A DNA stretch of 64,000 bases, taken from a virus. The stretch spans positions 9,471 through 73,470 of IMG/VR virus record IMGVR_UViG_3300028392_000060. The stretch is one strand, 5' to 3'. The notes under the pieces are model-generated. The model saw only the letters and a program-made list of their open reading frames with translations. It did no database searches and was not told the DNA's origin. This document shows, in pieces, positions 1 to 43,198 of this stretch. Both the position numbers and the translations under genes were made by a program. The first letter of the stretch is position 1. Each line of letters starts with the position of its first letter.

Positions 1-195
1 TGTTTCTGCTAAGTGGAATGGAACTATTTTGGCTGTTGCCATTATGTTTATGTAGTTAACCATATACTGAAGCAATGATTCATTTACATAAGCACTCTCG
101 TGAAGCATTTTGTAAGCCAAAGCAGCAGGCGATAGGTCAGCGTGGCCTAGGCCCTCAACTATCTGCTTGTGTAACTTCTCGCTACGCACTGTCAT
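1..195 (-). CDS. hypothetical protein (partial, runs off left edge)
   Basis: ATG at 195 overlapping the stop of the upstream gene; open frame MTVRSEKLHKQIVEGLGHADLSPAALAY... to the window edge; not in ORF track. Confidence 0.7.
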   Translation of the reverse strand, partial: MTVRSEKLHKQIVEGLGHADLSPAALAYKMLHESAYVNESLLQYMVNYINIMATAKIVPFHLAET

Positions 196-554
196 TACTC
201 TGTCTCCTCAACTGCTAAGATTAAATTTTCCTTAACTAGCCAGTCTACTACATCAGAGCCCTCTATGTCAAACCCGCCCCAAGGTGTTGCCCAGAATGTA
301 TTCCAGATTGTTTTTAGATCTGTGTTAGGGGCCAAGATTGAATCCCATTCGTCTAGTTCCAGGACCACATCACGTATGGTGTCCCATACAAACAGCCAAC
401 CCAGCGAGAAACCGACGGGGAGTGTCTGAAGATCATCTAGAATACTATTAAACTTATCATACAACTCATCACCTAGATTTTCATTAACCATTTGCCTTCT
501 CCAAATCTGATTGATAGAATATGATATCATAGCACATATTGTAGATATTTTCAA
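195..554 (-). CDS. hypothetical protein (true start probably ~491, MVNENL)
   Basis: ORF track; tightly coupled in the leftward operon. Confidence 0.65.
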   Translation of the reverse strand: MKISTICAMISYSINQIWRRQMVNENLGDELYDKFNSILDDLQTLPVGFSLGWLFVWDTIRDVVLELDEWDSILAPNTDLKTIWNTFWATPWGGFDIEGSDVVDWLVKENLILAVEETE

Positions 555-714
555 TAGCGTCTAGATAACCAATTGCCCATTGTTCATTTCCAAAATCCTT
601 ATGTTGCCATTCATACATAATGTTTTTCAGCTCCCCCTGCAGTACATCAATTAAAGGAACATTATGTTCTATGGCCTTTTTCATTTGTGGAGATAAATCA
701 TTGTAATTAAGCAT
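484..714 (-). CDS. hypothetical protein
   Basis: ORF track; overlaps neighbours in operon fashion. Confidence 0.65.
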   Translation of the reverse strand: MLNYNDLSPQMKKAIEHNVPLIDVLQGELKNIMYEWQHKDFGNEQWAIGYLDAIENIYNMCYDIIFYQSDLEKANG

Positions 715-1438
715 TTGTCATCTCCCTATGATCTTCGCACTTGTCTATATCTGCACCATAGAAGCAATTGCGGCATACTTCATTTTCACAATCTTCACAC
801 CACATATCAGAAGGGTCTCCAATATATTTGTAATCACATTCATTGCATTGCCAGTTCCAAGATGTATCTGATATTACTTCACCTCTAAGGATTTCCATTT
901 CCCCGCCCCAGCCTGTCTCCTCTTCATATGAAAGCGTAAAGAGTAGTTCAGGATACTGAGAAGATAGATTAGTTAATGCTTCATTAGGAACACCCCAAGC
1001 AGTATTAAAGTTATAATAAACTACTTTGTTATCGCCATTGTCAACAGGACCTTCCATACGTGTATCAGGATATTGTTCTTCACTAGACACGGCAACGTCC
1101 CACTTAACACCCCAGTTGCGGAGATTCCAGTTGTACCAATCATTGCCGACCTCTTGTTCGGCGTGGACTTCTTTCCACATATCTTCGCCTTTGGCCTCAA
1201 GGTTAACTTTTGCCTTTGCGTGATTGTGATACGCCTCTAAGTCTGTTGGTTTAATTATATTCCAGAATGCGAAAAGCGGGGCGGGATAAAGAATATCTTT
1301 TGCAACACTTGTCTTAGTATTAATATCCCAAGCGTGGGGATGAAATACTTTAAATGGTTGATTCATTTGATTTACTAATTTAGTTACAGATTCAGGATTA
1401 CCTTCTATAGTTAATCCATTAAATACCCAGTTTGGCAT
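707..1438 (-). CDS. DUF1281/YubB ferredoxin-like domain protein with C-terminal Cys cluster
   Basis: Motifs MPNW, WYNWNLRNWGVKWD, FNTAWGVP, LSSQYPEL.FTLSYEEE are typical of this phage family. Confidence 0.7.
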   Translation of the reverse strand: MPNWVFNGLTIEGNPESVTKLVNQMNQPFKVFHPHAWDINTKTSVAKDILYPAPLFAFWNIIKPTDLEAYHNHAKAKVNLEAKGEDMWKEVHAEQEVGNDWYNWNLRNWGVKWDVAVSSEEQYPDTRMEGPVDNGDNKVVYYNFNTAWGVPNEALTNLSSQYPELLFTLSYEEETGWGGEMEILRGEVISDTSWNWQCNECDYKYIGDPSDMWCEDCENEVCRNCFYGADIDKCEDHREMTNA

Positions 1439-1620
1439 TATTTATTCTCCTCATCAAAGGCTCCATAACTTGGAGTTATTCCGCTAAGCCACTCATAATA
1501 ACTTAATTTTCCCCCTAATTCCCAGCATTGTAAACAGAAAGTGCCAAATTGTTGTGCTACAACATAAGCAGGAATTGGAGAAATTGTTTTACAATTAGTA
1601 CAAGTTATTCTTTCAGTCAT
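1438..1620 (-). CDS. small Zn-finger-like hypothetical protein
   Basis: CxxC...CxxC; RBS (GAAAGGA) and PafBC-type promoter directly upstream. Confidence 0.65.
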   Translation of the reverse strand: MTERITCTNCKTISPIPAYVVAQQFGTFCLQCWELGGKLSYYEWLSGITPSYGAFDEENK

Positions 1621-1647
1621 TATTGTCCTTTCGTTGGGTAGGGTCTT

Positions 1648-1669
1648 ATTGTAGCATAGGGTACTGACA
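1648..1669 (-). promoter_or_regulatory. PafBC/RecA-NDp-type promoter
   Basis: Minus strand TGTCAG-taccctatgc-TACAAT (10-nt spacer). Confidence 0.8.
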
Positions 1670-1674
1670 TTTGG

Positions 1675-1983
1675 CTAGTCCCGCACCTTGTCAGTAGCCT
1701 CATCGTAAAGCAACCAGTCTATATCTATAGAATAGACAATCGTAATTGATTTGTCTAAAAGCTGGAGAACCACATGGTCCCCCTCTGTGTATCCAATTAG
1801 TTTAGCATCTTGAATTTGTTCACGACTAAAAGATCTATCTTCGTAAACGGCGGGAATGTGATTAAAGTAATAAGTATCACTATGAATACTATCCATTATA
1901 TCAAGCATTAGAATACTCCAATTCATTTTGTGATAAAGTAAATACAGTAAAATTAACACCATTGTTATAACAGAAGTTAACAC
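1675..1983 (-). CDS. hypothetical protein (start probably ~1908)
   Basis: ORF track. Confidence 0.5.
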   Translation of the reverse strand: MLTSVITMVLILLYLLYHKMNWSILMLDIMDSIHSDTYYFNHIPAVYEDRSFSREQIQDAKLIGYTEGDHVVLQLLDKSITIVYSIDIDWLLYDEATDKVRD

Positions 1984-2122
1984 AATTTATCAGAGATTCT
2001 GATTCATATAGTGGATATCCACCTGTATCGTAATCATTATCTAAATCAGGATATACTTCAAACATATTTATACCCCCTGGTGATACTGAATAATCTATTT
2101 CATATATTCTAAAGGTTTCCAT
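1901..2122 (-). CDS. hypothetical protein, probably leaderless mRNA
   Basis: ORF track; TAGACT-N18-TAAAAT promoter (2129-2158) places the start site at or next to the ATG. Confidence 0.65.
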   Translation of the reverse strand: METFRIYEIDYSVSPGGINMFEVYPDLDNDYDTGGYPLYESESLINCVNFCYNNGVNFTVFTLSQNELEYSNA

Positions 2123-2164
2123 AGGTAGATTTTAGCATATCGTAATCGTAAAAGTCTAATCGTA

Positions 2165-2230
2165 ATCTCATATTTTGAGATATATTTCAGTGATATATAT
2201 CACATATCGTAAAGTGTGATTTTAATCACA
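2165..2230. promoter_or_regulatory. operator cluster: ATCTCA-N5-TGAGAT palindrome plus two CRP-like boxes
   Basis: ATCTCATATTTTGAGAT 2165-2181; AGTGA-N6-TCACA 2189-2204; perfect TGTGA-N6-TCACA 2215-2230. Confidence 0.7.
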
Positions 2231-2404
2231 CCCCCGCGCCCAGCTGTCCCACTTTGTCAAGTGGGACACGCAAGGTTTTACATATAACTTACTATAAATT
2301 CCATAGTCATATGCAAATTACAATCACAATCATTTTTTGCAGAATCAAAGTGATCTTGATATTGCTCATAGATAAGTGTTACAAGTTCATCTATAGTGTA
2401 TGGT

Positions 2405-2770
2405 TTATGTGTTGTGGTAATTGTGAACCTCTTCCATATATGAAATAAAACTTTCAAAACTGTGCCAATGTCCATTATCATTTACCATTTGAGTAGTGAA
2501 ATCTATTTCTACTACTTCGTCCATATAAGGTGTGTCAGCATTTGCTACATAGATACCGAAGCCTGTTTCGCTATCCCGCCCATCTTTTGTTAGTTGGTCA
2601 ATTACAATGCGGAGAGCATACGGAACATCTCCCATATCAGTACGCTTTTTTGCGGCGGTAAGTGCTAACGCTAAATCCTCACGCCAAGTTGTTTCGCCCC
2701 AATGTGAATATAGCACAATGTTAGGCATATCTAACTCTGTTTTAAATACGAAATTAACTCTTGCTCCCAT
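2405..2770 (-). CDS. hypothetical phage protein (MGARVNFVF...LYSHWG)
   Basis: ORF track 2405..2860; start reassigned to 2770 because an AGGAG RBS lies just upstream. Confidence 0.7.
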   Translation of the reverse strand: MGARVNFVFKTELDMPNIVLYSHWGETTWREDLALALTAAKKRTDMGDVPYALRIVIDQLTKDGRDSETGFGIYVANADTPYMDEVVEIDFTTQMVNDNGHWHSFESFISYMEEVHNYHNT

Positions 2771-2901
2771 TAAAGTATTCCTCCTATCGCTATAAATACT
2801 CCAAGTAATACTGCTAAGATTAAAACTACTGCCGTTGAGTTCATTATCATATCCTATCAAATAAGTGGCGGGAAGTCAATTACCCTTCCCGCCCAAGTTA
2901 A

Positions 2902-3318
2902 TTAGAGATATTGAGCGATAGACTTCATAGTGGAAGCATTAACTGTTTCCTCATCTGTCATACGCAAGATGTTAAGAGCGTTTGTGATTTCCTCTTTGGA
3001 ATTTTTGTATTCATAATTTGCCATTTGGTTAAACTCACGGGTTGGCTCAACAGGGAAGTTAGAGCCTTTTGTGCTGACATCAAAATCAACATTTAGAGTT
3101 TCACTCCAAGAACGATACCCTGTGCGAAGGTTAGTTGCGGTTGCGATATTAGCGAGAGCGAAGTCTTTTAGACTATCTTGCCAAGCCTTGTATGCTTCTT
3201 GGAACTTTGCTTCGTTGGCTTCTTGACCAGCGTAGTCTATCTCAATTTGGGCTAACTTAGCCTCTAGTGCCTTGATTACCTTTGGTGTTGCCACCTTTAC
3301 TGTTATTGCTCTAGCCAT
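2902..3318 (-). CDS. hypothetical helical protein
   Basis: ORF track; RBS AAAGGA and PafBC-type promoter upstream. Confidence 0.75.
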   Translation of the reverse strand: MARAITVKVATPKVIKALEAKLAQIEIDYAGQEANEAKFQEAYKAWQDSLKDFALANIATATNLRTGYRSWSETLNVDFDVSTKGSNFPVEPTREFNQMANYEYKNSKEEITNALNILRMTDEETVNASTMKSIAQYL

Positions 3319-3351
3319 TTGGTTTCCTTTGTTAGTTGGGTTGGTAGGATT

Positions 3352-3373
3352 ATTATATCAGGGGGGTCTGACA
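3352..3373 (-). promoter_or_regulatory. PafBC/RecA-NDp-type promoter
   Basis: TGTCAG-acccccctga-TATAAT. Confidence 0.85.
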
Positions 3374-3448
3374 TAAACTTAAGTGCTAGTTCTTACTTAC
3401 GACATTGGGCTAGAACTCTAGCAAACTGCCCCTGTTTCGTTGTCCCCT

Positions 3449-3470
3449 ATTATATCATAGGGGTCTGACA
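3449..3470 (-). promoter_or_regulatory. PafBC/RecA-NDp-type promoter
   Basis: TGTCAG-acccctatga-TATAAT. Confidence 0.85.
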
Positions 3471-3698
3471 TTATGCTTCGTGCTTGGGCAAATCAACACG
3501 CACATTTTTCTGTATGTTAGAACTAATTAACTTACCTTGAAAAGCGACCATCATTTTTGCCAATTTCATTTCATCACCAGATGATAGTTCAATCTGGTTA
3601 TCATTTAAGACTACATATTCAACGCCATATTGAATAGCCTTGCCCAATCCATAGCCCATTTGGGCTTTGGACGGGACTTCTAAAGTAATAACTGCCAT
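3471..3698 (-). CDS. hypothetical protein
   Basis: ORF track; RBS GAGAGGA. Confidence 0.65.
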   Translation of the reverse strand: MAVITLEVPSKAQMGYGLGKAIQYGVEYVVLNDNQIELSSGDEMKLAKMMVAFQGKLISSNIQKNVRVDLPKHEA

Positions 3699-3699
3699 A

Positions 3700-4323
3700 T
3701 TAGGATTCCTCTCTTACATCATAAATAGAATAATCATTTACATCTACATCAGCACCATAAGTGGATACTGAAAGTTCATCATTTAACATAGTTTCTAAAT
3801 CATAATTATCGGTTAAAGATACACGCATAATTCCACTTACTTCTATTGTGGCAGAAAACTCTATTTCTTTACTTAGTTCAAGATTAAATAAATCTGCGAT
3901 AGTTGTTAAAGTATCTTGGTCATTACTGTCATCATAAGCGTCAATAATTATGTTATGAAGTGTAACTAACTTGTTGTTGAAATCAGCAACATCACTCTTA
4001 AGTTGACGGGCTTCACGAAGTTTCCACTCTAAATCATTAACTTTATCAGTTTGATAAGTTGTTTCGTTATTCTCAATTATCTTGTAGGTAACGAGTAGGT
4101 TTGGGTTATATTCTGTTGAAATATCCATTTGTTCCTCTTTCTTTGTAGTTGGGTCTATTGTAACATCTACCACCGACATCAGTATCATTTGTGTATCTGT
4201 CATACATTTTGGACACATATCACTTTGTGGAAGTCCATTAGATTTAATAGTCATTACAATATGGCTATCGCAATTTGGGCATACATAATCCCATTTAAAC
4301 CAGGTTTCATTTTTATTTGTCAT
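3700..4323 (-). CDS. hypothetical protein with N-terminal Zn ribbon (possible internal start at 4128)
   Basis: CPNC...CPKC; promoter TTGATT-N17-TAAAAT at 4331-4359. Confidence 0.65.
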   Translation of the reverse strand: MTNKNETWFKWDYVCPNCDSHIVMTIKSNGLPQSDMCPKCMTDTQMILMSVVDVTIDPTTKKEEQMDISTEYNPNLLVTYKIIENNETTYQTDKVNDLEWKLREARQLKSDVADFNNKLVTLHNIIIDAYDDSNDQDTLTTIADLFNLELSKEIEFSATIEVSGIMRVSLTDNYDLETMLNDELSVSTYGADVDVNDYSIYDVREES

Positions 4324-4330
4324 AGCGAGT

Positions 4331-4396
4331 ATTTTAGCAGGTTACTCACGGGTAATCAAACGACACGCCGTAAAACTCAGGGTGATTTTTATCACA
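4331..4396 (-). promoter_or_regulatory. sigma-A-type promoter with WhiA-type GACAC motif and CRP-like box
   Basis: CGGCGTGTCG-t-TTGATT-N17-TAAAAT; GGTGA-N6-TCACA at 4381-4396; TTACTCACGGGTAA in the spacer. Confidence 0.7.
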
Positions 4397-4403
4397 CTCG
4401 TAA

Positions 4404-4433
4404 CGACACGCCCGACCTCGGGGGGCGCGGCCC
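4404..4433. repeat. conserved GC-rich intergenic element, copy 1
   Basis: CGACACGCCCGACCTCGGGGG(G)CGCGGC, near-identical at 5769, 8592 and 9903. Confidence 0.9.
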
Positions 4434-4470
4434 ATGCATAATTATACATTGCAATGCATATTTATACATT
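4433..4470. promoter_or_regulatory. tandem ArgR (ARG box)-like operator
   Basis: CATGCATAATTATACATT-gc-AATGCATATTTATACATT: two 18-bp imperfect palindromes at a 20-bp period. Confidence 0.65.
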
Positions 4471-4479
4471 GAAGCTTTG

Positions 4480-4555
4480 CGATCCGTACGGGATTTGAAC
4501 CCGTGGTCTCTACAGTGACAGTGTAGTGAATTAAACCAAACTATTCTAACGGACC
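4480..4555 (-). tRNA. tRNA-Asp (GTC)
   Basis: Cloverleaf with acceptor GGTCCGT/ACGGATC, anticodon arm CTACA-CTGTCAC-TGTAG, T arm ACGGG-TTCAAAT-CCCGT and discriminator G; followed by CAA, not CCA. Confidence 0.95.
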
Positions 4556-4561
4556 TTGCGG

Positions 4562-4589
4562 TGAGCAGTTTTTACACTTGCTCAGGTGT
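4562..4589 (-). ncRNA. compact H-type pseudoknot motif, copy A
   Basis: ACAC-C-TGAGCA-A-GTGT-AAAAAC-TGCTCA; covaries with copies at 9977 and 10521. Confidence 0.7.
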
Positions 4590-4597
4590 TGCGAATT

Positions 4598-5626
4598 TTA
4601 TTTCGCTAGTGCTAAGACTTGCTTAACAATTTTATTTTTTTCAGCAGTTACAACAGGGTCAAAACCACTTGCGCCTGCCATTAGGCTATCGCCATCTTTT
4701 CGGGCTGTGCGATAATAATCTAGGCGTTCTGTGAGAGCATTTACAACACCCCACGCAGTACCCTTGATATTATTATTGGTAGGCGAATTGTGATAAAGTT
4801 CATCAAGCAATACAACCTTATTTTCCCATTTCTTGATTGAACCCTTTTTGTCCAATTCAGGCTTTGGGTACATCTTGTTAATGATTTCTGAAAACTTTTT
4901 ATCAGTAACAGAAATTGCGAATAGTTCTTGCGCTTGCTTTTCAAATTCATCAGCATATGCGAAAGTTAATCCGAGAGCCTCTCGTGCTTGAGCAATTTTA
5001 CCATCAACAGTTTGTGTATGACGGATTTTGAAACTCTGCTTTGCTTTTTTCATAGCAAAATTAAGAGTGTTTTGGCACATAACACGAACAGGGGTAATAG
5101 CAGATTGAACCGCTACTGAGCCATCGTGTGAAGTCCAAACAATTAGATAAAGTTTTGTTTCATCGTTCACACCTTTAGGGTCTAATACGATTGTGCGGGG
5201 AACGGACATTGTGCCAAACACAACATTGCCACCCTTGAGAGAGCCTGCGCTTTCCCAAAATACATCTTGATTTCCATCGTGTAAGTTATCAGCAAACGAA
5301 AATAATTCCTCGTTTTGAACTTCTTTATAGCGTGAACCTACAACGGAGAGAACATCAGTTTGTCCCGCAGTATAAGGGTTATCACGAATTACAAGTTGAT
5401 TATCCTTGAGAGAGTTCCAATTCTCAGGGAGATAATCAGCAACAGGAGCAAGGCGAACGTTCCAATTAGATAGTTTAGCACCATCTAACATTTGAGCAGT
5501 TGTTACTGCTTCATCTTGATTGAATACCTTATTGGCAAAAGAGTGCCAAGCGGGTACTGTGCGGAGATTTACGGCAAGAGAAACTTCTCCGCCTTCAACC
5601 TCTGATTTATGAGCCAAGTTGGTCAT
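4598..5626 (-). CDS. DUF932 family phage/plasmid protein (TIGR03299-like)
   Basis: Motifs PAWH, LSVVGSRY..VQNEELF.FAD, ESAGSLKGG, SHDGS, TPVRVMCQNTL, IRHT, GTAWG..NALTE..DY. Confidence 0.9.
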   Translation of the reverse strand: MTNLAHKSEVEGGEVSLAVNLRTVPAWHSFANKVFNQDEAVTTAQMLDGAKLSNWNVRLAPVADYLPENWNSLKDNQLVIRDNPYTAGQTDVLSVVGSRYKEVQNEELFSFADNLHDGNQDVFWESAGSLKGGNVVFGTMSVPRTIVLDPKGVNDETKLYLIVWTSHDGSVAVQSAITPVRVMCQNTLNFAMKKAKQSFKIRHTQTVDGKIAQAREALGLTFAYADEFEKQAQELFAISVTDKKFSEIINKMYPKPELDKKGSIKKWENKVVLLDELYHNSPTNNNIKGTAWGVVNALTERLDYYRTARKDGDSLMAGASGFDPVVTAEKNKIVKQVLALAK

Positions 5627-5655
5627 ATGATTTCCTTTCTTTGTTTGTTAAATTG

Positions 5656-5677
5656 AGTATAACATATGGCACCGACA
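5656..5677 (-). promoter_or_regulatory. PafBC/RecA-NDp-type promoter for the DUF932-tRNA unit
   Basis: TGTCGG-tgccatatgt-TATACT. Confidence 0.85.
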
Positions 5678-5726
5678 TTTGTCCACTTTAAATAATCATT
5701 TTAAGACACATTCAACCAATTTTGCG

Positions 5727-5797
5727 TGTGAGAAATATCACAGAGATTTTTTCGGCGTGTCGTAAATGCGACACGCCCGACCTCGGGGGCGCGGCCC
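5727..5797. repeat. CRP-like box, inverted GACAC pair and conserved GC-rich element copy 2
   Basis: TGTGAGAAATATCACA 5727-5742; CGTGTCG-taaatg-CGACACG; element at 5769-5797. Confidence 0.85.
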
Positions 5798-6087
5798 AAA
5801 AATTTAATTTTGTCAAGTCAACACGCAGCTATTTTTTAAATAAAAAAAATATTTTTAATATAACAATAATGGCCACCGTGTAAAATAATTGTGAAAACAC
5901 GTTGACCATTAATTGCATTTTATCCCCTCGTTTAAATATATTTTATAAGATCTTTTGTTTTTCTACAATTTTTCTAGCCTTTGCAGATAACGGTTTACCT
6001 GGGCAGTTCATATGAAAATAAGTTATTAGCATATCTTCTTCATTTGTTGTTGTGGCCCCGCATTTATGGCAGGACCACGATTCTTTT

Positions 6088-6411
6088 TTATTCTTCATCA
6101 GTGTACACGCATTCTGCACAGTCGCATTCCCATGAATGCGGTAGCCATGCGTCTAAGTGATGCGCTTCTGCAATTGCGGATGCGGGAGCACTTTCTTCTC
6201 CACGCCATGACACGCCTTCGGGAAGTTTAATCAAGCGAGAATAATCTTCTTCATGATATGCATCAATTGCATCTAGGCAAGGTTGCACCATTGAAGAGGG
6301 GACGGGTGGGTAGTGATTACCCTTCAAGTGAATTTTTAATTGTGTGCGAATATCTATAGCCATATCCGCTAGATCATTTGCAAAAACACTTCCCATATTA
6401 GTTATCTCCAT
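6088..6411 (-). CDS. hypothetical phage protein (HLxGNHYPPVP...AHHLDAW)
   Basis: ORF track; operon-coupled. Confidence 0.75.
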   Translation of the reverse strand: MEITNMGSVFANDLADMAIDIRTQLKIHLKGNHYPPVPSSMVQPCLDAIDAYHEEDYSRLIKLPEGVSWRGEESAPASAIAEAHHLDAWLPHSWECDCAECVYTDEE

Positions 6412-6682
6412 TTTCTATTGAATCAAACATATTTTGAATTTCTAGGGCTTCATCCGCCATTTTATCAAAGTCCTCACCCATTAGCAAGTGCGACACTCTA
6501 GTAGCGACTACACTAGCAAGTAAAGTAGAATAAGCAAACATCATTTCAGAAATACGATCTAATTTTTCTGAATTACCTTCAGCATAGTCCCAAGCAATTT
6601 CACGAGCAGCATTCATCACTTCAATATCAATTACTGAATCAGCAGTCGCTTCTCTAATTTCAAAGAAAGTAGAAATACTCAT
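6398..6682 (-). CDS. hypothetical protein
   Basis: ORF track; coupled to neighbours. Confidence 0.7.
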   Translation of the reverse strand: MSISTFFEIREATADSVIDIEVMNAAREIAWDYAEGNSEKLDRISEMMFAYSTLLASVVATRVSHLLMGEDFDKMADEALEIQNMFDSIENGDN

Positions 6683-6888
6683 TATTCCACCACCTTTAAT
6701 AATGCGTAAGAATTATTTTCGTTTAATTCATCTAAGATATCTGTTAGTTTAGGAACGATTAACGCCTTAAGCATATCCTCAAGCATAGCCACTTGTTGTT
6801 CATATGGGAGAGATAGTAGACGGCGGGCAGTAGGATTATTTTCATCCAATTCTGTTTCAAACTTTAGCGTGTGAGGGATTTTTACCAT
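6682..6888 (-). CDS. hypothetical protein
   Basis: ORF track; RBS AAAGGA and promoter upstream. Confidence 0.7.
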   Translation of the reverse strand: MVKIPHTLKFETELDENNPTARRLLSLPYEQQVAMLEDMLKALIVPKLTDILDELNENNSYALLKVVE

Positions 6889-6922
6889 TTATTTATTGTC
6901 CTTTTCTTTGTTGGGAGTAGTT

Positions 6923-6944
6923 AGTATATCACGAGCCACCGACA
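6923..6944 (-). promoter_or_regulatory. PafBC/RecA-NDp-type promoter
   Basis: TGTCGG-tggctcgtga-TATACT. Confidence 0.85.
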
Positions 6945-7008
6945 TTAGTTCGGTGGAGAAAGTGTTATCTATGAAATTATTCCATAGTGTATCAAGTTGA
7001 TTATTCAT

Positions 7009-7212
7009 TTATTCCCCTTCGTCATATTCTAGGGACATAGGGAAGGCATCTAGCCCCATAAATCCCATATCTTCTTGATCATAGCACTCAGGGCAGACAT
7101 AGTCATCGCCATATATTTCATATTCATCTACGGAGTAAAAAGTTTCTTTAGCCCCGCATATTTCATAGTATAGACACGCTACTACAAAAATTTCATCTTG
7201 TTGATTTATCAT
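7009..7212 (-). CDS. small acidic Cys-rich protein
   Basis: ORF track 7009..7308; start reassigned to MINQQDE (RBS GAAAGGT) because the upstream part spans the promoter. Confidence 0.65.
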   Translation of the reverse strand: MINQQDEIFVVACLYYEICGAKETFYSVDEYEIYGDDYVCPECYDQEDMGFMGLDAFPMSLEYDEGE

Positions 7213-7243
7213 AAGTTTACCTTTCTTGTTGTTGATATTGGCA

Positions 7244-7265
7244 AGTATAACATAGGGCACCGACA
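7244..7265 (-). promoter_or_regulatory. PafBC/RecA-NDp-type promoter
   Basis: TGTCGG-tgccctatgt-TATACT; CRP-like GGTGA-N6-TCACA at 7294-7309 upstream. Confidence 0.85.
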
Positions 7266-7344
7266 CGATCAAACAACACGCCGCAAAACTCAGGGTGATT
7301 AAAATCACACTCGTAACACGGCGTGTCGGCTTGACAGCCGCGGC

Positions 7345-7377
7345 AAAAAATTTGCAGCTTTTGCAAACTACAAATTT
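7345..7377 (-). terminator. probable intrinsic terminator (similar one at ~8618-8652)
   Basis: Minus strand AAATTTGTAG-loop-CTGCAAATTT ending in a T run. Confidence 0.5.
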
Positions 7378-7502
7378 ATTTTTTTATTTATTCAAATTTA
7401 TTTTTATATTTATTTTTTCTTGAATAAATTTTTTTATTTTTAATTGGTGTTGCCGCATTACTGCGACGCAATTCTTGAATGCGTTTTACTTTTTCCATAA
7501 TT

Positions 7503-7706
7503 TTATTTACCCCCAATTTTACCACCACGATACAAAATTTTTGTATGTAATTTCCCGCTTGGCTCTAATAAATTAACAGTTGCGTATTCATTAGCAAATC
7601 CCCAATCAACAAAACTGCGATAAGAATTTACTGCGTCTAACGCATTATCTAACACCATTGACCAATGCGGTGCTTTGCCATCATAGGCACAAGTTATTTT
7701 GTACAT
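7503..7706 (-). CDS. hypothetical protein
   Basis: ORF track; RBS GGAG. Confidence 0.7.
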   Translation of the reverse strand: MYKITCAYDGKAPHWSMVLDNALDAVNSYRSFVDWGFANEYATVNLLEPSGKLHTKILYRGGKIGGK

Positions 7707-7798
7707 TAGTTATTTCTCCAAACATTTATTGCATAGGGCATAATTATTTGAGAAATAAACACGATAACATCTAACGCATTTGCTTAGTTTAGTTTTCA

Positions 7799-7987
7799 TT
7801 AGTTATTCTCCCAATTCTTGAATAGTTGGTGAAAATCTGCAATTTTTTCCGCAGAAATTTGAGTTGGATTACACTCACAATAATCAAAATCAAAATCTCC
7901 GTCTGGTGATGACCAACCTGTGAAACCTTGACCATAGCACTCAGGGCAAGTTAAAATTTCGGTGATTACTTCTTTTACTTTAGACAT
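7799..7987 (-). CDS. small Zn-ribbon protein (CPEC.G.G...YCECNP)
   Basis: ORF track 7799..8011; start at MSKVKE with RBS GAAAGGA. Confidence 0.7.
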   Translation of the reverse strand: MSKVKEVITEILTCPECYGQGFTGWSSPDGDFDFDYCECNPTQISAEKIADFHQLFKNWENN

Positions 7988-8029
7988 TAGTTGTCCTTTC
8001 TTGTTTGACATTTACACTTTGTTAATTGT

Positions 8030-8051
8030 ATTCTATCACCCACCACCGACA
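8030..8051 (-). promoter_or_regulatory. PafBC/RecA-NDp-type promoter
   Basis: TGTCGG-tggtgggtga-TAGAAT. Confidence 0.8.
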
Positions 8052-8090
8052 AGGTGGCGAGTGTTGAACAGTTATCGCATAAGTAAATCA

Positions 8091-8312
8091 TTACTCATCT
8101 ACTTTGATATAAACAGTTGCGAAAAAATCAGGCTTAGGGTAACCTTCGCCTGTGTAAGTTGGGCGAACTTTACAAGCGAACGCATAAACGCCTTCGCTTA
8201 AACCGCAAATATCTTTTCGCAATTTTGCGTATTGGATAATTCCGTCTTGACCTGTTCGGGCATAAGAACGGCTACGATAGTATTTTCCCTCTAGGGCTTC
8301 TGAGATTAGCAT
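8091..8312 (-). CDS. hypothetical protein
   Basis: ORF track; RBS GAAGGT. Confidence 0.7.
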   Translation of the reverse strand: MLISEALEGKYYRSRSYARTGQDGIIQYAKLRKDICGLSEGVYAFACKVRPTYTGEGYPKPDFFATVYIKVDE

Positions 8313-8419
8313 TATTTGCTACCTTCTTTCTTTGTTGAGTTAATTATAACATTTACCACCGACACGGCAGACTGACGGCGGGTTTCAAGTACGTGTGCCT
8401 TGAATTCATCTAGGTTCAT
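8312..8419 (-). CDS. small hypothetical protein MNLDEFKAHV... (35 aa)
   Basis: 3' part of track ORF 8312..8596; RBS GAAGGT; contains an internal promoter. Confidence 0.55.
   Translation of the reverse strand: MNLDEFKAHVLETRRQSAVSVVNVIINSTKKEGSK
8343..8364 (-). promoter_or_regulatory. PafBC/RecA-NDp-type promoter (intragenic)
   Basis: TGTCGG-tggtaaatgt-TATAAT. Confidence 0.8.
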
Positions 8420-8450
8420 TATTTGACCTTCTTTCTTTCTTGTTATGGCA

Positions 8451-8472
8451 AGTATACCAAAACCCACTGACA
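8451..8472 (-). promoter_or_regulatory. PafBC/RecA-NDp-type promoter
   Basis: TGTCAG-tgggttttgg-TATACT. Confidence 0.85.
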
Positions 8473-8481
8473 TTATTCTAC

Positions 8482-8617
8482 TTACTAGCCAGTAATTCCA
8501 TATTTTGAGACGCTCAAGCGGTGTGATAAATATCACACGACACGCCCGAAAGATGAATTTTAGATGAATTTTAATCCACACGTAATCCACAGACACGCCC
8601 GACCTCGGGGGCGCGGC
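8482..8617. promoter_or_regulatory. dense operator array ending in GC-rich element copy 3
   Basis: TTACT-N4-AGTAA 8482-8495; TTCCATATTTTGAGAC 8496-8511; TGTGA-N6-TCACA 8522-8537; CGACACGCC; (AGATGAATTTT)x2 8551-8572; TAATCCACA x2; element 8592-8617. Confidence 0.75.
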
Positions 8618-8682
8618 AAAAAATTTGCAGCTTTTTAATTCTGCAAATCTTTTTTATTTTTATTTATTTTTATTTATTTTTT

Positions 8683-8796
8683 TTATTTAAAATTTTTAAA
8701 AATTTCTTCAACAATTTTTAACTGTTCATCGTTAAGATGTTCAATTTGAATTGCATCTGCAAATCCAAAAATATCTTTTTGATTTTCATTAGTCAT
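8683..8796 (-). CDS. small hypothetical protein MTNENQKDIFGFADAI... (37 aa)
   Basis: Read by hand; overlaps the stop of the upstream gene. Confidence 0.5.
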   Translation of the reverse strand: MTNENQKDIFGFADAIQIEHLNDEQLKIVEEIFKNFK

Positions 8797-8983
8797 TGAA
8801 ACATGCTTCCCAAAAACGATCCGCATCAAAATTTGGATTATCGTTTTCAAAAATTGTTATGAAACGATTTACCAAACCATTTTCAAATTCATTTGTAAAA
8901 GATGGGCGGGTTTCCAAATTATTTTCTTTTAAATAATCATTAAGGATTTTAGCCGTAGCGATATAAGTTTTTCTAGTCATCAT
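8789..8983 (-). CDS. small protein, MMTRK family paralogue 1
   Basis: ORF track; paralogous to 10012..10191. Confidence 0.75.
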   Translation of the reverse strand: MMTRKTYIATAKILNDYLKENNLETRPSFTNEFENGLVNRFITIFENDNPNFDADRFWEACFND

Positions 8984-9076
8984 TTATTTATTCTCTTCAA
9001 TCTCATCTAGTAGTTCCCAAAGAATTGGCTCTAACGCTTTTGCGCTTTCATCTAATTTTTCTTGTAGTGTTTTCAT
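8984..9076 (-). CDS. small hypothetical protein MKTLQEKLDESAKALEPILWELLDEIEENK
   Basis: Read by hand; exactly fills the gap between adjacent genes. Confidence 0.6.
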   Translation of the reverse strand: MKTLQEKLDESAKALEPILWELLDEIEENK

Positions 9077-9283
9077 TTATTTATAGTATTCCATTTCTGT
9101 TAGTAAGTGAGCATAACCATCTTTATTAGACTTTAGCGATAATTCGCAAGGCTCGCATTTCCATTCATATTTTAATGTTCTACCTGTTCCCAATGTTGCA
9201 ACAGCCCAATGGGTCATTTTACGAGAACACACAGGGCAGTAGCAAGAAATTTCTTGCCCTAGCCCACCAATTTTAATAGTCAT
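9077..9283 (-). CDS. small Zn-ribbon protein
   Basis: CPVC...CEPC. Confidence 0.7.
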   Translation of the reverse strand: MTIKIGGLGQEISCYCPVCSRKMTHWAVATLGTGRTLKYEWKCEPCELSLKSNKDGYAHLLTEMEYYK

Positions 9284-9477
9284 TATTTAACCACGCTTTC
9301 TTTAAATTCTTTTTGATTACAAGTTAAGGCAAGGATTTCACCCTTAGCATTTACGATACGAGCATTTACTATATCGTGTTCATCACTAACATTAGTGATT
9401 TCATTTATTAGGTAATTCTCATTTTTCCAAATAAAGAGACACCCTACGAATAATTTATTTATAAGTGTTAAAGTCAT
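9283..9477 (-). CDS. hypothetical protein
   Basis: ORF track 9283..9495; coupled start at MTLTL. Confidence 0.6.
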   Translation of the reverse strand: MTLTLINKLFVGCLFIWKNENYLINEITNVSDEHDIVNARIVNAKGEILALTCNQKEFKESVVK

Positions 9478-9671
9478 TAGATACACACCACGCATTCACA
9501 CTTAGGGGCATTAACAGATAATAAAATTTTTAACAACGCTTTACGCTGTCCAAAATTTAAGCCATAAGTGGATTTACACCCACCATTATTAAAATCGTGT
9601 ATGATACGATTTTCTAATTCCGCACTAATATTTAGTGCCTTACCTATATTTATTTTATTTAGTGTAGTCAT
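9477..9671 (-). CDS. hypothetical protein
   Basis: ORF track; RBS GAAAGGTGG; WhiA-type promoter upstream. Confidence 0.7.
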   Translation of the reverse strand: MTTLNKINIGKALNISAELENRIIHDFNNGGCKSTYGLNFGQRKALLKILLSVNAPKCECVVCI

Positions 9672-9706
9672 CTTAGACCACCTTTCTTTATTGTTTAACT
9701 ATCGTT

Positions 9707-9747
9707 AGTTTAGCAGACTTTCTGCCGAAAATCAAGGCGACACGCCG
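9707..9747 (-). promoter_or_regulatory. sigma-A-type promoter with WhiA-type motif
   Basis: CGGCGTGTCGCC-TTGATT-N17-TAAACT. Confidence 0.7.
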
Positions 9748-9860
9748 TAGATTTCTAACTTTTTTTTCTATATTTAATTTTCTATAATGGAATTGTAACA
9801 TAAAAAATCGCTACTGTCTAGTATACTCGTGAGTAGTCTCAATATATGGAGCGTGGGCTT

Positions 9861-9929
9861 TGTGATAAAAATCACAAAGATTTTTTTAATCGTACGTAAA
9901 TGCGACACGCCCGACCTCGGGGGCGCGGC
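9861..9929. repeat. CRP/Rex-like box and GC-rich element copy 4
   Basis: TGTGATAAAAATCACA 9861-9876; element 9903-9929. Confidence 0.85.
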
Positions 9930-9935
9930 GAAAAA

Positions 9936-9949
9936 CGAACAGATGTTCG
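9936..9949. promoter_or_regulatory. LexA (SOS) box, Gram-positive/actinobacterial type
   Basis: CGAACAGATGTTCG matches CGAAC-N4-GTTCG. Confidence 0.8.
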
Positions 9950-9976
9950 CATTAAAAAAATAGCTGTAAAAAAAAT

Positions 9977-10005
9977 TAAGCAGTTTTAAAACTTACTTAG
10001 GTTTT
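9977..10005 (-). ncRNA. compact pseudoknot motif, copy C
   Basis: AAAAC-C-TAAGTA-A-GTTTT-AAAAC-TGCTTA. Confidence 0.65.
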
Positions 10006-10011
10006 TATTTT

Positions 10012-10191
10012 TTAAACGTTTAAATTTTTAAAACACTCTTCCCAAAATCTATCGCTATCAAATCTTTCGTTATCAGCGAAAAACATTTCGGAAAAATCAT
10101 TTACTAAATCTTCAAACACTTCTAATTTCATTTCGCCACCATAAGAATTTAAAATCTCTGCGGTTGCTACGTAGTCTTTTCTTGTCATCAT
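10012..10191 (-). CDS. small protein, MMTRK family paralogue 2 (59 aa)
   Basis: Read by hand: MMTRKDYVATAEILNSY...FFADNERFDSDRFWEECFKNLNV; RBS AAAGGA. Confidence 0.8.
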   Translation of the reverse strand: MMTRKDYVATAEILNSYGGEMKLEVFEDLVNDFSEMFFADNERFDSDRFWEECFKNLNV

Positions 10192-10317
10192 TTTTGTTCT
10201 TTTCCTTTTCTTTAGTTAATAGATTAAGTGGGGCATAGGTTGATTACGGAGACTTACTCGCACTCTTGCCTTAAGACTCAGCGAAGCCCGACCCACTTAA
10301 TTATATTTATTATAGCA

Positions 10318-10488
10318 TTACTTAGATGTTTTAACCATTGCTAAACGCTTTGAGCCATTTGCTAAAGTTAAACCAACACGAGTTACTTTGTTAGAAATTG
10401 GAGCGAAAGAATTTATTCGTCCAGTAATTCCAGTTGTTGATGTTGTGAATAAATCACCGATTTGGTAAGTGTATCCTTGTATTGTCAT
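10318..10488 (-). CDS. small beta-rich protein, TYQIGDLFTT family paralogue 1 (56 aa)
   Basis: Read by hand: MTIQGYTYQIGDLFTTSTTGITGRI...; RBS AAAGGA. Confidence 0.8.
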   Translation of the reverse strand: MTIQGYTYQIGDLFTTSTTGITGRINSFAPISNKVTRVGLTLANGSKRLAMVKTSK

Positions 10489-10520
10489 TTATTTTATATC
10501 CTTTTCTTTTGTTGGGTTGT

Positions 10521-10549
10521 TGAGCAGTTTTATATCTTGCTCAGGATAT
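10521..10549 (-). ncRNA. compact pseudoknot motif, copy B
   Basis: ATATC-C-TGAGCA-A-GATAT-AAAAC-TGCTCA. Confidence 0.7.
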
Positions 10550-10568
10550 TTAGGGTATTTCCCTAAAC

Positions 10569-10733
10569 TTATGCGAGTGAAACTGTTGTGTAACGCTCTG
10601 TTCCATCAACATCAAGCAGAACACGAGTTAGTGTTTTGCTAATTGGTTCAATAGCCTTGATAACGCCTGTTACCTTGCTTTTTTGTGTAGTGAATAAATC
10701 ACCGATTTGGTAAGTCTTGTTATTTATAGTCAT
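10569..10733 (-). CDS. small beta-rich protein, TYQIGDLFTT family paralogue 2 (54 aa)
   Basis: Read by hand: MTINNKTYQIGDLFTTQKSKVTGVI...; RBS AAAGGA. Confidence 0.8.
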   Translation of the reverse strand: MTINNKTYQIGDLFTTQKSKVTGVIKAIEPISKTLTRVLLDVDGTERYTTVSLA

Positions 10734-10765
10734 TTTTTTCCTTTTCTTTTGTTGTTGTTAGTGAT

Positions 10766-10787
10766 AGTCTACCATAGACTACCGACA
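10766..10787 (-). promoter_or_regulatory. PafBC/RecA-NDp-type promoter
   Basis: TGTCGG-tagtctatgg-TAGACT. Confidence 0.8.
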
Positions 10788-10795
10788 TTTGCTTT

Positions 10796-10981
10796 CTATC
10801 TTTGATTTAATAAAGATTTACAACCTGCGAAGGGGCATCTTATATGTTGCGCCCTATGGATTTTATAAGTATATTTTCCGACATTAGAAAGGCGGGGGCT
10901 ATGGTGAGTGCTACCATAAGCGGGGGCGGGAATTAGTAGTGCTATTAGAATTACTATAACTATTCTTTTAATCATTTCCAC
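10796..10981 (-). CDS. small secreted/membrane hypothetical protein
   Basis: Signal-peptide-like N terminus. Confidence 0.5.
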   Translation of the reverse strand: MEMIKRIVIVILIALLIPAPAYGSTHHSPRLSNVGKYTYKIHRAQHIRCPFAGCKSLLNQR

Positions 10982-11075
10982 CCCTTAACTTCTTTAGCCA
11001 TATAGTAAAACATCATACCAAAGAAAGGCAAAGATATCAACATTATAGCCCGTAGGGCATAGGTGAGATATATCA

Positions 11076-11258
11076 CTAGAGTACCTCATCTATATCAAAA
11101 TTATCTACGGCTAGAAAGACATCTGCCATTTCATCAGCGTCAGATTTAGCCTCTGCTAATTCATCTAACATAGTATCAAAGGTATCGGCAAGTGTTTCCC
11201 ACTTGTCTGTCTTTCTATCAAACGAATATGAGTAAGTCATTATTTGACCCCCGCACAA
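11076..11258 (-). CDS. small acidic hypothetical protein
   Basis: ORF track; likely start MTYSY at 11240. Confidence 0.6.
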   Translation of the reverse strand: MCGGQIMTYSYSFDRKTDKWETLADTFDTMLDELAEAKSDADEMADVFLAVDNFDIDEVL

Positions 11259-11383
11259 TTCATATTGCCACTTCCGAGAGTAGCATAAGCAGAAAGTGGT
11301 CTACCATTTTGATAGATGATTTTTTCACTACAACGAGAGCAGGTTGTAACCTGTTCGGTAGGTTGAGTAGGATTGTGTAACAT
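11240..11383 (-). CDS. small Cys-containing hypothetical protein
   Basis: 3' part of track ORF 11240..11473; RBS GAGGT before MLHNPT. Confidence 0.55.
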   Translation of the reverse strand: MLHNPTQPTEQVTTCSRCSEKIIYQNGRPLSAYATLGSGNMNCAGVK

Positions 11384-11444
11384 ATTAGTTACCTCTATTC
11401 TTTTAATTAGATTGAGAACCTTTCTCAATTTCTTTAATACTGTA

Positions 11445-11484
11445 ATTATAGCACACAAAATCGGAAAAGTCAAGCGACACGCCG
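11445..11484 (-). promoter_or_regulatory. strong sigma-A-type promoter with WhiA-type motif
   Basis: CGGCGTGTCGC-TTGACT-N17-TATAAT. Confidence 0.8.
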
Positions 11485-11648
11485 TTAATTACACGCTTGT
11501 AATTAGTGATATACACCACAAAACGCCCTATTTCTAGACATACTGGCGAGTAATGTCTAATATTCGGGCGCACTATTATTTTTTTATTTTTTTATTTAAA
11601 AAGTGTATCATGCATTTTAAAAATCCATTCACATTTTGACCAAATGTG

Positions 11649-11662
11649 GTTTCACGTGAAAC
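11649..11662. promoter_or_regulatory. parS site (ParB binding)
   Basis: Perfect 14-bp palindrome GTTTCACGTGAAAC in intergenic DNA. Confidence 0.85.
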
Positions 11663-11722
11663 AATTTTGAGGGGAGTGGCATAATGTTTTCTATTAACTA
11701 TCTTAGAAAAATATCGTGGCAT

Positions 11723-12583
11723 TTAAATCTTCAAATCCAAATCTGTAATGTAATAGGTTTCATAGAAGTTTTGAGAAATTCTACGATTTAATATATAGTA
11801 GAAAATCTGGCGGGATATAGAAAGCTCATCAAAATCAAAACTATCCAGATACTCTATAGCTATTTTAGCATCATTACTATCTATAGCATGTTTTCCATTA
11901 AGAGGACTGGCACTTATTTTATCAAAACACTTATTTACTATGCTAAGATCACGCAATATTTTGTCGGGAGACCAAGAATCTTCCCCCCGATCCCTTAAAG
12001 CTGGATAAATATGACATGGAGAAATAGCAAAAGTACCTCTTGTCCAATGTACATTAGGATATTTTGTTCTAATTACAGATTCTTCTTCTTCAAAATATTC
12101 TATAAGGCGTAAAACCCTAGAATTTTCATTTTTTATAGCATTTTTCCATCTTGTATCAGCAATATGTTGTTTTCCATTACGATTTCGTGATTGTGAAAAG
12201 ACAGGAAGGCGAGAAATTAAATCATTTGCTTTAATTTCTTTAGAATTATAAGACTTTCTCTCTATTTGATAATTAACTTCTTCTATAGAGGTTCTTTTTG
12301 GCCTAATTTTGCTTAATTCAGACAGTTCTGCATCTGTGCATGATAATAAATACTCATTTTGAGTATAATGAGCTTCTAAACCATATTGTAAGTGTTTAAA
12401 ACCAGATGCGGGGATTATAAAAAAATATTTATCAGTATAAATATGATAAGAATCTTCACTAGATACATGTAAATATTTAATATTGTGACATAAATCACTA
12501 ATTGGTTTCATTTTTCCTAATCCATAGTTGATATCCTGAATGAATAATTTCAATTTTATCTTTATAGCATGCAAGAAAAGCAT
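11723..12583 (-). CDS. hypothetical protein (start probably ~12511, MKPISDL)
   Basis: ORF track. Confidence 0.65.
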   Translation of the reverse strand: MLFLHAIKIKLKLFIQDINYGLGKMKPISDLCHNIKYLHVSSEDSYHIYTDKYFFIIPASGFKHLQYGLEAHYTQNEYLLSCTDAELSELSKIRPKRTSIEEVNYQIERKSYNSKEIKANDLISRLPVFSQSRNRNGKQHIADTRWKNAIKNENSRVLRLIEYFEEEESVIRTKYPNVHWTRGTFAISPCHIYPALRDRGEDSWSPDKILRDLSIVNKCFDKISASPLNGKHAIDSNDAKIAIEYLDSFDFDELSISRQIFYYILNRRISQNFYETYYITDLDLKI

Positions 12584-33328: not shown

Positions 33329-33329
33329 T

Positions 33330-35558: not shown

Positions 35559-35594
35559 ATATGCTACAATATACTAAACAACAAGGAGAAATAA

Positions 35595-35888
35595 ATGTCA
35601 GCAAGATATGAAATAGAAGAAGGAACAAATGCAGTAATGGTATTTTATGGGGAGTCCCCGCAACCTTCTCTTTATCAACCAAATTGGCCAGGAGGGGATC
35701 CTTGGGCAGATATTGCAGAAGCAGAAACATGGGCAAAACTTTATATTGCATCAGTTACAGATGAGTCTGCTCCATACGCACCAAATCATCCAGGGGAAGA
35801 AGGCGCACCAAAGCCAACTCCAGAAGAAATTGCTGCAATGCAAGCCGAAATTGAAGCTCGTAAAAATCCTGCCCTTCCAAATGCTTAA
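35595..35888 (+). CDS. hypothetical protein
   Basis: ORF track; RBS AAGGAG; TGCTACAAT promoter at 35562. Confidence 0.7.
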   Translation: MSARYEIEEGTNAVMVFYGESPQPSLYQPNWPGGDPWADIAEAETWAKLYIASVTDESAPYAPNHPGEEGAPKPTPEEIAAMQAEIEARKNPALPNA

Positions 35889-35915
35889 ATAGTTTTAATT
35901 AAACAAAGGATTTAA

Positions 35916-36581
35916 ATGGAACACTATGACGTGTTGATTGCAACACCTGGATCCGTGTTAGAAGCACAATATGTAAAAAGTTTAGTTTTAACATTAGCCG
36001 AATGTGATAAACGTGGCATTTCTTATAAATGGCTTAATGCTTATTCTTCTTTAGTGCATCATGCACGGGAATTAACTGCATCGGGCGGTACTGGATTAGA
36101 ATTAAATCCAGATCATAAAGGTCCTGTAGGAGATTCTGTAACATATAAAAAGATATTCTGGATAGATTCAGATATTGCATGGACACCAGAACAATTTTTT
36201 AAAATTTATGATTCTGAATATGATGTAATTGCAGGATGTTATTTGTTAGCAGATGGAATTACAACTACAATACATCCATGGGGTAATAATAATGGAATTC
36301 CCGTCAATGAAATTTTACAAATGAAAGAACCTTTAAAAGTACAAAGTATAGGGTTTGGATTTGTTGCAATGAAATCAGGAGTATTTGAAAAATTACCAAG
36401 ACCCTGGTTTAAACATTTTGATCAAGCAGTAATGACATCTATGGGAAATCAAATTGTAGATTCTATAGGTGAAGACATATCTTGGTGTATTAAAGCATAT
36501 CAGGCAGGAATAAATATTTATTTTGATCCCGCCGTTCTAGTCAATCATATGAAGAAAATGGAAATTAAATGGCCGAAGTAA
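35916..36581 (+). CDS. GT-A fold glycosyltransferase-like protein
   Basis: VLIATP, FWIDSDI (DxD), GFGFVAMK..VFE, GEDISWC, H. Confidence 0.8.
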   Translation: MEHYDVLIATPGSVLEAQYVKSLVLTLAECDKRGISYKWLNAYSSLVHHARELTASGGTGLELNPDHKGPVGDSVTYKKIFWIDSDIAWTPEQFFKIYDSEYDVIAGCYLLADGITTTIHPWGNNNGIPVNEILQMKEPLKVQSIGFGFVAMKSGVFEKLPRPWFKHFDQAVMTSMGNQIVDSIGEDISWCIKAYQAGINIYFDPAVLVNHMKKMEIKWPK

Positions 36582-37282: not shown

Positions 37283-37390
37283 TGAATTTAGTTCAAAGAT
37301 CTGTTGAAAAAGGTGGAAAATTAGCCTATATATCAGTAAAAATGGCATTGAATTGTTCACTTTTTAAGAATTAGATGGTATTATTGGCAT

Positions 37391-37729
37391 ATGAGCAAAA
37401 TGAAAGTAACACCTATTGATGAGGTAAATTGGGGTCTATACGCCTGGATGATGCCAGATGAAACACTTGTTATGGATGAAGAAGGTGGATATTTAAGTAT
37501 TCCTTCTATGAAAGGCGATATCCGTCAAATAAAAAAACTTAAAGATGCAGCAAAGCACTACGGCTTAGAGGATGGTCATCCAGTATTTTTTGCGGGGCAT
37601 AGACCAGTAGACAATGAAGAACTTGAAACGCAAAAACAAAGAATGGAATTGGGTCTTGTACCAGATGTTATGGACACTCCAGCAATGCTTGAATATTATA
37701 AAGAAATGAAAGAGATGAAAATTGGCTAA
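37391..37729 (+). CDS. hypothetical protein preceding portal
   Basis: ORF track; overlaps the portal start. Confidence 0.7.
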   Translation: MSKMKVTPIDEVNWGLYAWMMPDETLVMDEEGGYLSIPSMKGDIRQIKKLKDAAKHYGLEDGHPVFFAGHRPVDNEELETQKQRMELGLVPDVMDTPAMLEYYKEMKEMKIG

Positions 37730-39302: not shown

Positions 39303-39304
39303 AA

Positions 39305-43180: not shown

Positions 43181-43198
43181 TTTTTAATTAGTTGCAAG

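Follow-up and report, generated by a model that had tools for sequence, protein, structure and literature searches.

Predicted PafBC-type promoters in the small-gene block of a lake phage with actinophage affinities

The small-gene block and its eleven promoter sites

The stretch of viral DNA analysed here (64 kb, hereafter the window) corresponds to bases 9471-73470 of the IMG/VR record IMGVR_UViG_3300028392_000060, which has 73,470 bases and is 66% complete. The window begins with a leftward block of small genes in which a 22-nt element, TGTCRG-N10-TAnnnT, recurs; the element resembles the promoters activated by the actinobacterial DNA-damage regulator PafBC (RecA-NDp class). In addition to the features listed in Table 1, the block encodes many small CxxC proteins to which no function is assigned. 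On the plus strand of the window lie the genes for portal, protease, capsid, ribonucleotide reductase and a tape measure of 2551 aa; genes for a WhiB-like protein, Cpn10 and SSB are located further left, in the portion of the record that precedes the window. The G+C content varies along the window between approximately 31 and 41% (phage overall, approximately 35%).

Table 1 Features of the small-gene block. Positions are those of the window; RBS, ribosome-binding site; ORF, open reading frame.
Feature	Sequence	Position	Strand	Basis and context
Small leftward gene block		1..11500	-	ORF list and protein scans; holds all 11 PafBC-type sites
PafBC-type promoter	TGTCGGTAGTCTATGGTAGACT	10766..10787	-	Pattern scan; RBS and ATG at 10733
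PafBC-type promoter	TGTCAGTGGGTTTTGGTATACT	8451..8472	-	ATG at 8419; preceded by a module with GC-rich element and CRP-like box
PafBC-type promoter	TGTCGGTGGTAAATGTTATAAT	8343..8364	-	ATG at 8312
PafBC-type promoter	TGTCGGTGGTGGGTGATAGAAT	8030..8051	-	ATG at 7987
PafBC-type promoter	TGTCGGTGCCCTATGTTATACT	7244..7265	-	ATG at 7212; -35-like TTGATC overlaps, 17-nt spacer
PafBC-type promoter	TGTCGGTGGCTCGTGATATACT	6923..6944	-	ATG at 6888
PafBC-type promoter	TGTCGGTGCCATATGTTATACT	5656..5677	-	Before the DUF932 gene, ATG at 5626
PafBC-type promoter	TGTCGGTGGTAGATGTTACAAT	4157..4178	-	Inside ORF 3700-4323; RBS, then in-frame ATG at 4128
PafBC-type promoter	TGTCAGACCCCTATGATATAAT	3449..3470	-	Upstream partner of a tandem pair (with 3352)
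PafBC-type promoter	TGTCAGACCCCCCTGATATAAT	3352..3373	-	ATG at 3318
PafBC-type promoter	TGTCAGTACCCTATGCTACAAT	1648..1669	-	ATG at 1620
SigA-like canonical promoter, TTGACT-17-TATAAT with TGn		11445..11473	-	GGCGTGTCG just upstream
SigA-like canonical promoters, same class		-10 ends at 9707 and 4331	-	Promoter scan
LexA-box-like palindrome	CGAACAGATGTTCG	9936..9949	+	Single site
DUF932 protein		4598-5626	-	In the block
DUF1281_C-domain protein		707-1438	-	In the block
tRNA-Asp		4479-4555	-	In the block

The pattern TGTCRG-N10-TAnnnT has 11 exact matches in the window, which span 1648 to 10787 and are without exception on the minus strand, compared to an expectation of 0.92 from 100 dinucleotide shuffles (standard deviation 0.92, maximum 3). 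The full record adds no further match and its plus strand, which carries the virion genes, has none; a reading made earlier from the letters alone (the sequence-only reading) had likewise seen no site in front of a virion gene, and no exact match precedes one in the window or the record. All ten coordinates given in that reading were exact in the pattern scan, and its count was one short, the site at 4157 inside ORF 3700-4323 having been overlooked. The invariant 10-nt spacer that it described holds as well: spacers of 9 or 11 nt add no minus-strand match, and TAnnnT stands exactly 10 nt downstream of 11 of the 19 minus-strand TGTCRG hexamers in the record. The placement shortly before an RBS and start codon was borne out for 10 of the 11 sites (RBS and ATG, 27-42 nt past the -10); the eleventh, at 3449, forms a tandem pair with the promoter at 3352, which follows 97 nt downstream.

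Every site carries an extended -10 (TGn, with TG at positions 14-15), seven of the 11 start with TGTCRGTG, and a simple scan found a -35-like hexamer overlapping two of them (5656 and 7244). When the pattern was relaxed (TGn included, one mismatch), the sole plus-strand match was at 57866, within a 1458-aa ORF (2.4 matches expected overall). Judged from sequence, we are very confident that the 11 sites act as promoters. As for ORF 3700-4323, its first 65 codons resemble a zinc ribbon with two CxxC pairs; with a predicted promoter, RBS and in-frame ATG inside the gene, a 207-aa full-length and a shorter 142-aa product may both be made.

Identity of the phage

The WhiB-like gene (L009:2047-2361) scored 38.1 bits against a cut-off of 23.6, and WhiB is present in all 16 related genomes. 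The portal is 53% and the DUF932 protein approximately 50% identical to those of Streptomyces phages of the Stanwilliamsviridae (clusters BE/BK, e.g. Jay2Jay and Blueeyedbeauty), with which the phage also shares a leftward block of small genes and the same order of glycosyltransferase, ribonucleotide reductase, portal, protease, capsid and long tape measure. WhiB, these identities and the gene order together mark the phage as a low-GC actinophage, as opposed to one infecting low-GC Gram-positive bacteria. It differs from that family in its G+C content and in coming from lake samples. There was no megablast match to the phage database for window positions 1-12000 and 30000-50000, and the WhiB protein fell in viral clusters only of the protein atlas, giving no clue to the host. 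Three successive plus-strand ORFs of 740-742 aa each lie between a 1390-aa virion protein and the portal region (28881-35558); the first had weak PHROG matches only, and the other two were unscanned.

Conservation of the motif in related phages

Using the DUF932 protein as query, 80 related viral contig loci (1.35 Mb) were gathered. The background comparison proposed in the sequence-only reading for the genome and its relatives, which in the window had returned 11 sites against 0.92, gave 983 matches on the gene strand of these loci, as against 6 on the opposite strand, with at least two at each locus. Control spacers gave 12/11 (9 nt), 3/9 (11 nt) and 2/3 (17 nt) matches on the gene/other strand. 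The logo of 826 unique family sites, AATGTCAGT(G/C)(C/G)..t.TGcTAtAAT, is followed by an A-rich leader with RBS; its -35 positions reach at most 0.2 bits, i.e. there is no conserved -35, and the G of TGn is correctly placed in 87% of the sites. An RBS-preceded start codon was found 20-49 nt downstream of 640 of 813 unique family sites; for random positions the figure was 73 of 960. The sites of five complete relatives are confined to one block of 10-13 kb on one strand (per-strand counts 11/2, 1/17, 9/4, 15/0 and 21/0; control 0-3). When the viral collection was searched for exact matches to a stricter pattern, at least 79 new loci were added, at least 65 of them with three or more sites on one strand; among the matches listed, the new loci hold 606 sites versus 11 on the opposite strand (control 5), and at least 64 of them share proteins with the small-gene block of this phage.

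The PafBC-type motif was not found in the two Streptomyces phages searched, Jay2Jay and Blueeyedbeauty. The motif is thus a lineage-specific trait, since these cultured relatives lack it, and an ancestral origin in the Stanwilliamsviridae was rejected, neither phage being enriched for it.

A scan of genome contigs for the ribonucleotide reductase returned 26 loci (L092-L117, 55-89% identity), in metagenome-assembled genomes (MAGs) labelled cyanobacterium, Bacteroidia, Saccharibacteria, Brevundimonas, archaea and others. They are probably phage contigs mis-binned into host MAGs, and no host assignment was obtained by this route.

Comparison with known promoters and phage modules

The in vivo PafBC consensus, tGTCgg(N10)tA(N3)T, comprises a -26 element and a canonical SigA -10 with no -35; its GTC is strictly conserved and contacted by R46 and R50 of PafB, PafBC inserts between sigma domain 4 and the DNA (a mode termed 'sigma adaptation'), and T4 AsiA/MotA is pointed to as a related mode (PMC8635444). 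PafBC is activated by binding of single-stranded DNA to its WYL domains (PMC11804915). The consensus named in the sequence-only reading was confirmed in that all 11 sites fit the published pattern (PMC8635444). By sequence features, every one of which they meet, the phage sites are of the PafBC (RecA-NDp) class, and share with promoters such as that of mycobacterial recA the 22-nt layout, the invariant GTC, a -26 element in place of the -35 and a SigA -10. Unlike those promoters, they number 9-21 per genome and stand before small genes of unassigned function, not repair genes; the TGn extended -10 is near-universal among them, and they have a 5' leader of approximately 20-30 nt with an RBS, whereas several host sites are leaderless.

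The middle promoters of T4 (MotA box at -30 plus a sigma-70 -10) are likewise a phage class with an upstream element instead of the -35 and an adaptor on sigma domain 4. T4, however, encodes its own adaptors, whereas the present family has no detected WYL or sigma gene and its element equals the site of a host activator (MotA/AsiA homologues were not searched for). The block itself resembles the terminal redundancy of SPO1 and the first-step-transfer region of T5: approximately 10 kb, many small genes, short units and strong promoters of their own. The pre-early modules of SPO1 and T5 use ordinary host sigma promoters. In Jay2Jay, a DUF932 homologue lies 1.6-2.7 kb from one record end and again at a second place in the record, places that presumably lie in the terminal repeat, BE-cluster Streptomyces phages having, as we assume, a long one.

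Candidate host genomes

Candidate hosts were reached through a mis-binned contig, which led to an 'Aquiluna' MAG (G001) with two adjoining WYL genes and from there to 251 genomes of the class, 7 of them unpublished; the candidate host relatives are the small aquatic actinobacterial genomes of 1.0-1.5 Mb in this class. WYL proteins are encoded in 250 of the 251. The candidate genome G140 has two adjoining WYL genes (327 and 307 aa) followed by tatC, i.e. a pafB-pafC-tatC locus. Its 327-aa protein matches PafB chains over the full length (7p5x_AY, E 4e-39; also 6sj9_A, named PafBC) and retains RMFER, i.e. the DNA-reading arginines R46 and R50.

The 22-mer is present upstream of recA in 14 of 15 small candidate genomes (e.g. 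TGTCAGTGGCGCCTGCTACCTT), with the same TGn as in the phage, and is followed by a LexA box (TCGAACAGATGTTCG) at 10 of 13 candidate loci. In G140 the motif also precedes carD, a LysM protein gene and a Cas4/AddB-like nuclease gene adjoining pafBC (the nuclease below the curated cut-off). The strict pattern TGTCRGTG-N8-TAnnnT gave 68 sites in 11 candidate genomes versus 6 for the control, 4-9 per genome. Mycobacterium smegmatis or Corynebacterium glutamicum is unlikely as the host of the phage.

Most strict PafBC-type sites of G140 cluster in a region of approximately 50 kb (G140:C1:439000-490000, L141-L143) with genes for TPR proteins, a trypsin-like peptidase, a C5 DNA methylase and unassigned products; several of these genes are leaderless, with the ATG 6 nt past the -10. 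This region may be a PafBC-controlled variable or defence island. The phage proteins had no match at 1e-4 in the host regions fetched; the island is therefore not visibly derived from this phage.

Host PafBC as the predicted activator

Neither the WYL domain (PF13280) nor Sigma70_r2 (PF04542) was detected in the phage family: searches for WYL in this record (E up to 1) and in 15 relatives (E up to 0.1; completeness at least 90% for 14 of the relatives) gave no match, nor did those for Sigma70_r2 in 16 genomes (E up to 0.1). A phage-encoded PafBC-like activator, the alternative offered in the sequence-only reading, was not encountered in the record or the 15 relatives, and the WYL search of the phage proteome that it had suggested came back empty for this record.

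We lean, with slightly better than even confidence, towards the sites being served by host PafBC together with RNA polymerase containing SigA (PafBC-dependent, RecA-NDp class). This is the best reading because the candidate hosts hold pafBC and the same motif, and the phage family has no detected WYL or sigma gene. The steps, modelled on the mycobacterial system, would be as follows. Each site joins a -26 element, TGTCRG(TG), through an invariant 10-nt spacer to an extended -10 (TGnTAnnnT), the -35 not being conserved; with the -35 missing, host RNA polymerase with the housekeeping sigma alone would be unable to start. The host WYL activator PafBC, constantly present, would be turned on by single-stranded DNA and placed between sigma domain 4 and TGTCRG, licensing initiation. 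The densely promoted small-gene block, probably a host-takeover module, would thus be tied to the LexA-independent damage signal of the host, arising in ultraviolet-damaged cells or from single-stranded DNA produced by phage DNA entry or host DNA cutting. The extended -10 may give some basal activity without PafBC. The PafBC wiring proposed in the sequence-only reading has gained from the published consensus, the actinophage affinity, and the presence of PafBC and of the motif at recA in candidate hosts, whereas PafBC binding, early timing and the trigger are still what we infer from the sequence. A further-reaching version, which we regard as somewhat doubtful, is that this abundant lake actinophage clade took over the single-stranded DNA-sensing regulator of its host as an early-gene switch: single-stranded DNA of the infection would activate PafBC, fire 11-21 phage promoters, more than the 4-9 strict sites in the streamlined genome of the host, and drain the alarm from host repair and possibly defence genes.

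Several observations weigh against PafBC dependence. Jay2Jay has 2 sites versus 5 for the control and Blueeyedbeauty 0 versus 2, and both relatives infect Streptomyces bearing PafBC. The looser 22-nt pattern shows no genome-wide enrichment in the candidate hosts (149 versus 127 for the control), TGTC is directly preceded by AA in the phage consensus but by T or CT at host sites, and the phage tRNA-Asp had no match in five candidate host genomes. The candidate genomes have approximately 45-50% G+C at the loci read, compared to approximately 35% in the phage. That the block is early would follow by analogy, and the extended -10 could let the promoters work without any activator. Canonical SigA-like promoters are also present in the block; as it holds these and other conserved elements, PafBC would be one input of several.

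The strongest competing explanation is that TGTCRG is recognised by a phage activator lacking a WYL domain, which links it to the host sigma in the manner of T4 MotA/AsiA, the likeness to PafBC sites reflecting convergence or competition for sites; we consider it unlikely. Candidates would be one of the small zinc-ribbon proteins of the block, which encodes many small CxxC proteins of unassigned function, or the phage WhiB, found in all 16 genomes. WhiB-like proteins bind sigma domain 4. The canonical promoters could express such a factor first, and the restriction of the motif to this lineage, outside the Streptomyces relatives, is what co-evolution with a phage factor would produce; T4 AsiA/MotA is, moreover, the mode named as related to sigma adaptation (PMC8635444). 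However, no DNA-binding protein candidate was identified, 14 near-complete relatives yielded neither WYL nor sigma region 2, and the candidate host recA and carD sites have the same hexamer, the same 10-nt spacer and the same TG at positions 7-8, which is much to ask of convergence.

It is less probable still that these are plain extended -10 SigA promoters without an activator, the TGTCRG in the spacer being an operator through which a host or phage repressor silences the block. For E. coli-type RNA polymerase, promoters with an extended -10 can do without a -35, and the G of TGn is in place in all 11 sites and in most of the family sites, as described above; the region also has other conserved operator-like elements (CRP-like boxes and GGCGTGTCG). 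TGTCRG is non-palindromic, though, unlike typical repressor operators, the candidate host recA promoters pair the same TGTCAG with TGn, and both the sequence and the position of the element agree with a known activator site (PMC8635444).

Finally, the many strong PafBC sites of each phage genome (9-21, versus 4-9 strict sites per candidate host genome), multiplied by replication, might act as a sponge that pulls PafBC off a host damage and defence regulon, some host sites preceding the DNA methylase, TPR proteins and peptidase of the variable-looking island, but this proposal is very improbable as a separate explanation, given that the sites are placed as working promoters with RBS and start codon at a fixed distance and that titration is compatible with PafBC dependence, of which it would be a by-product and no alternative.

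Significance for PafBC regulation in phages

Phage promoters of this class are not described in the portions available of the literature on PafBC/RecA-NDp with phages and on actinophage early promoters (including PMC5087735 and PMC12848934); the promoter class as such has been described before, and its adoption by a clade of phages appears to be new. Sigma adaptation by PafBC has so far been described for repair genes of mycobacterial hosts, and WYL regulators have otherwise been linked to phage defence. If host PafBC does serve the phage sites, this would be the reverse use, a virus reading the damage signal of its host, and the first virus known to exploit a host WYL regulator for sigma adaptation, in an environmental phage clade that holds about a thousand PafBC-type promoters of natural origin. 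PafBC activation by phage entry would become testable, as would the bases beyond GTC that matter, by means of this natural mutational series, and the timing of early genes in phages that infect freshwater actinobacteria with streamlined genomes and few regulators. The motif also provides a simple marker, at sequence level, of the phage clade and of an actinobacterial host.

Other elements in the block

The element GGCGTGTCG occurs 9 times at 4361-11483 of the window (0.03 expected) and 472 times in 79 of the 80 related loci (control 3). It stands directly upstream of the -35 in the canonical promoters with -10 ends at 11445, 9707 and 4331, is also found inside the GC-rich element CGACACGCCCGACCTCGGGGGCGCGG, and contains TGTCG. 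CRP/GlxR-like palindromes (TGTGA-N6-TCACA) lie in the intergenic modules of the block (2189, 2215, 4381, 5727, 7294, 8522 and 9861; window 2189-9876). With at most one mismatch there are 9 in the window versus 2.7 expected, and exact matches in the relatives amount to 732 when counted by strand (approximately 366 sites), in all 80 loci, compared to 2 for a control palindrome.

The palindrome CGAACAGATGTTCG (9936..9949) has exactly the sequence of the box that closely follows the PafBC-type recA promoter in candidate host genomes; a LexA box as a conserved phage feature was rejected, being present in only 6 of the 80 related loci. Of the words sampled from 1600-10800, three lake-water metatranscriptome contig runs contained fractions of 0.31, 0.29 and 0.18, respectively, values that are not evidence of expression. 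Canonical extended -10 elements at 4331 and 2129 end 6-7 nt ahead of an ATG (4323 and 2122, respectively), a spacing that suggests leaderless phage transcripts.

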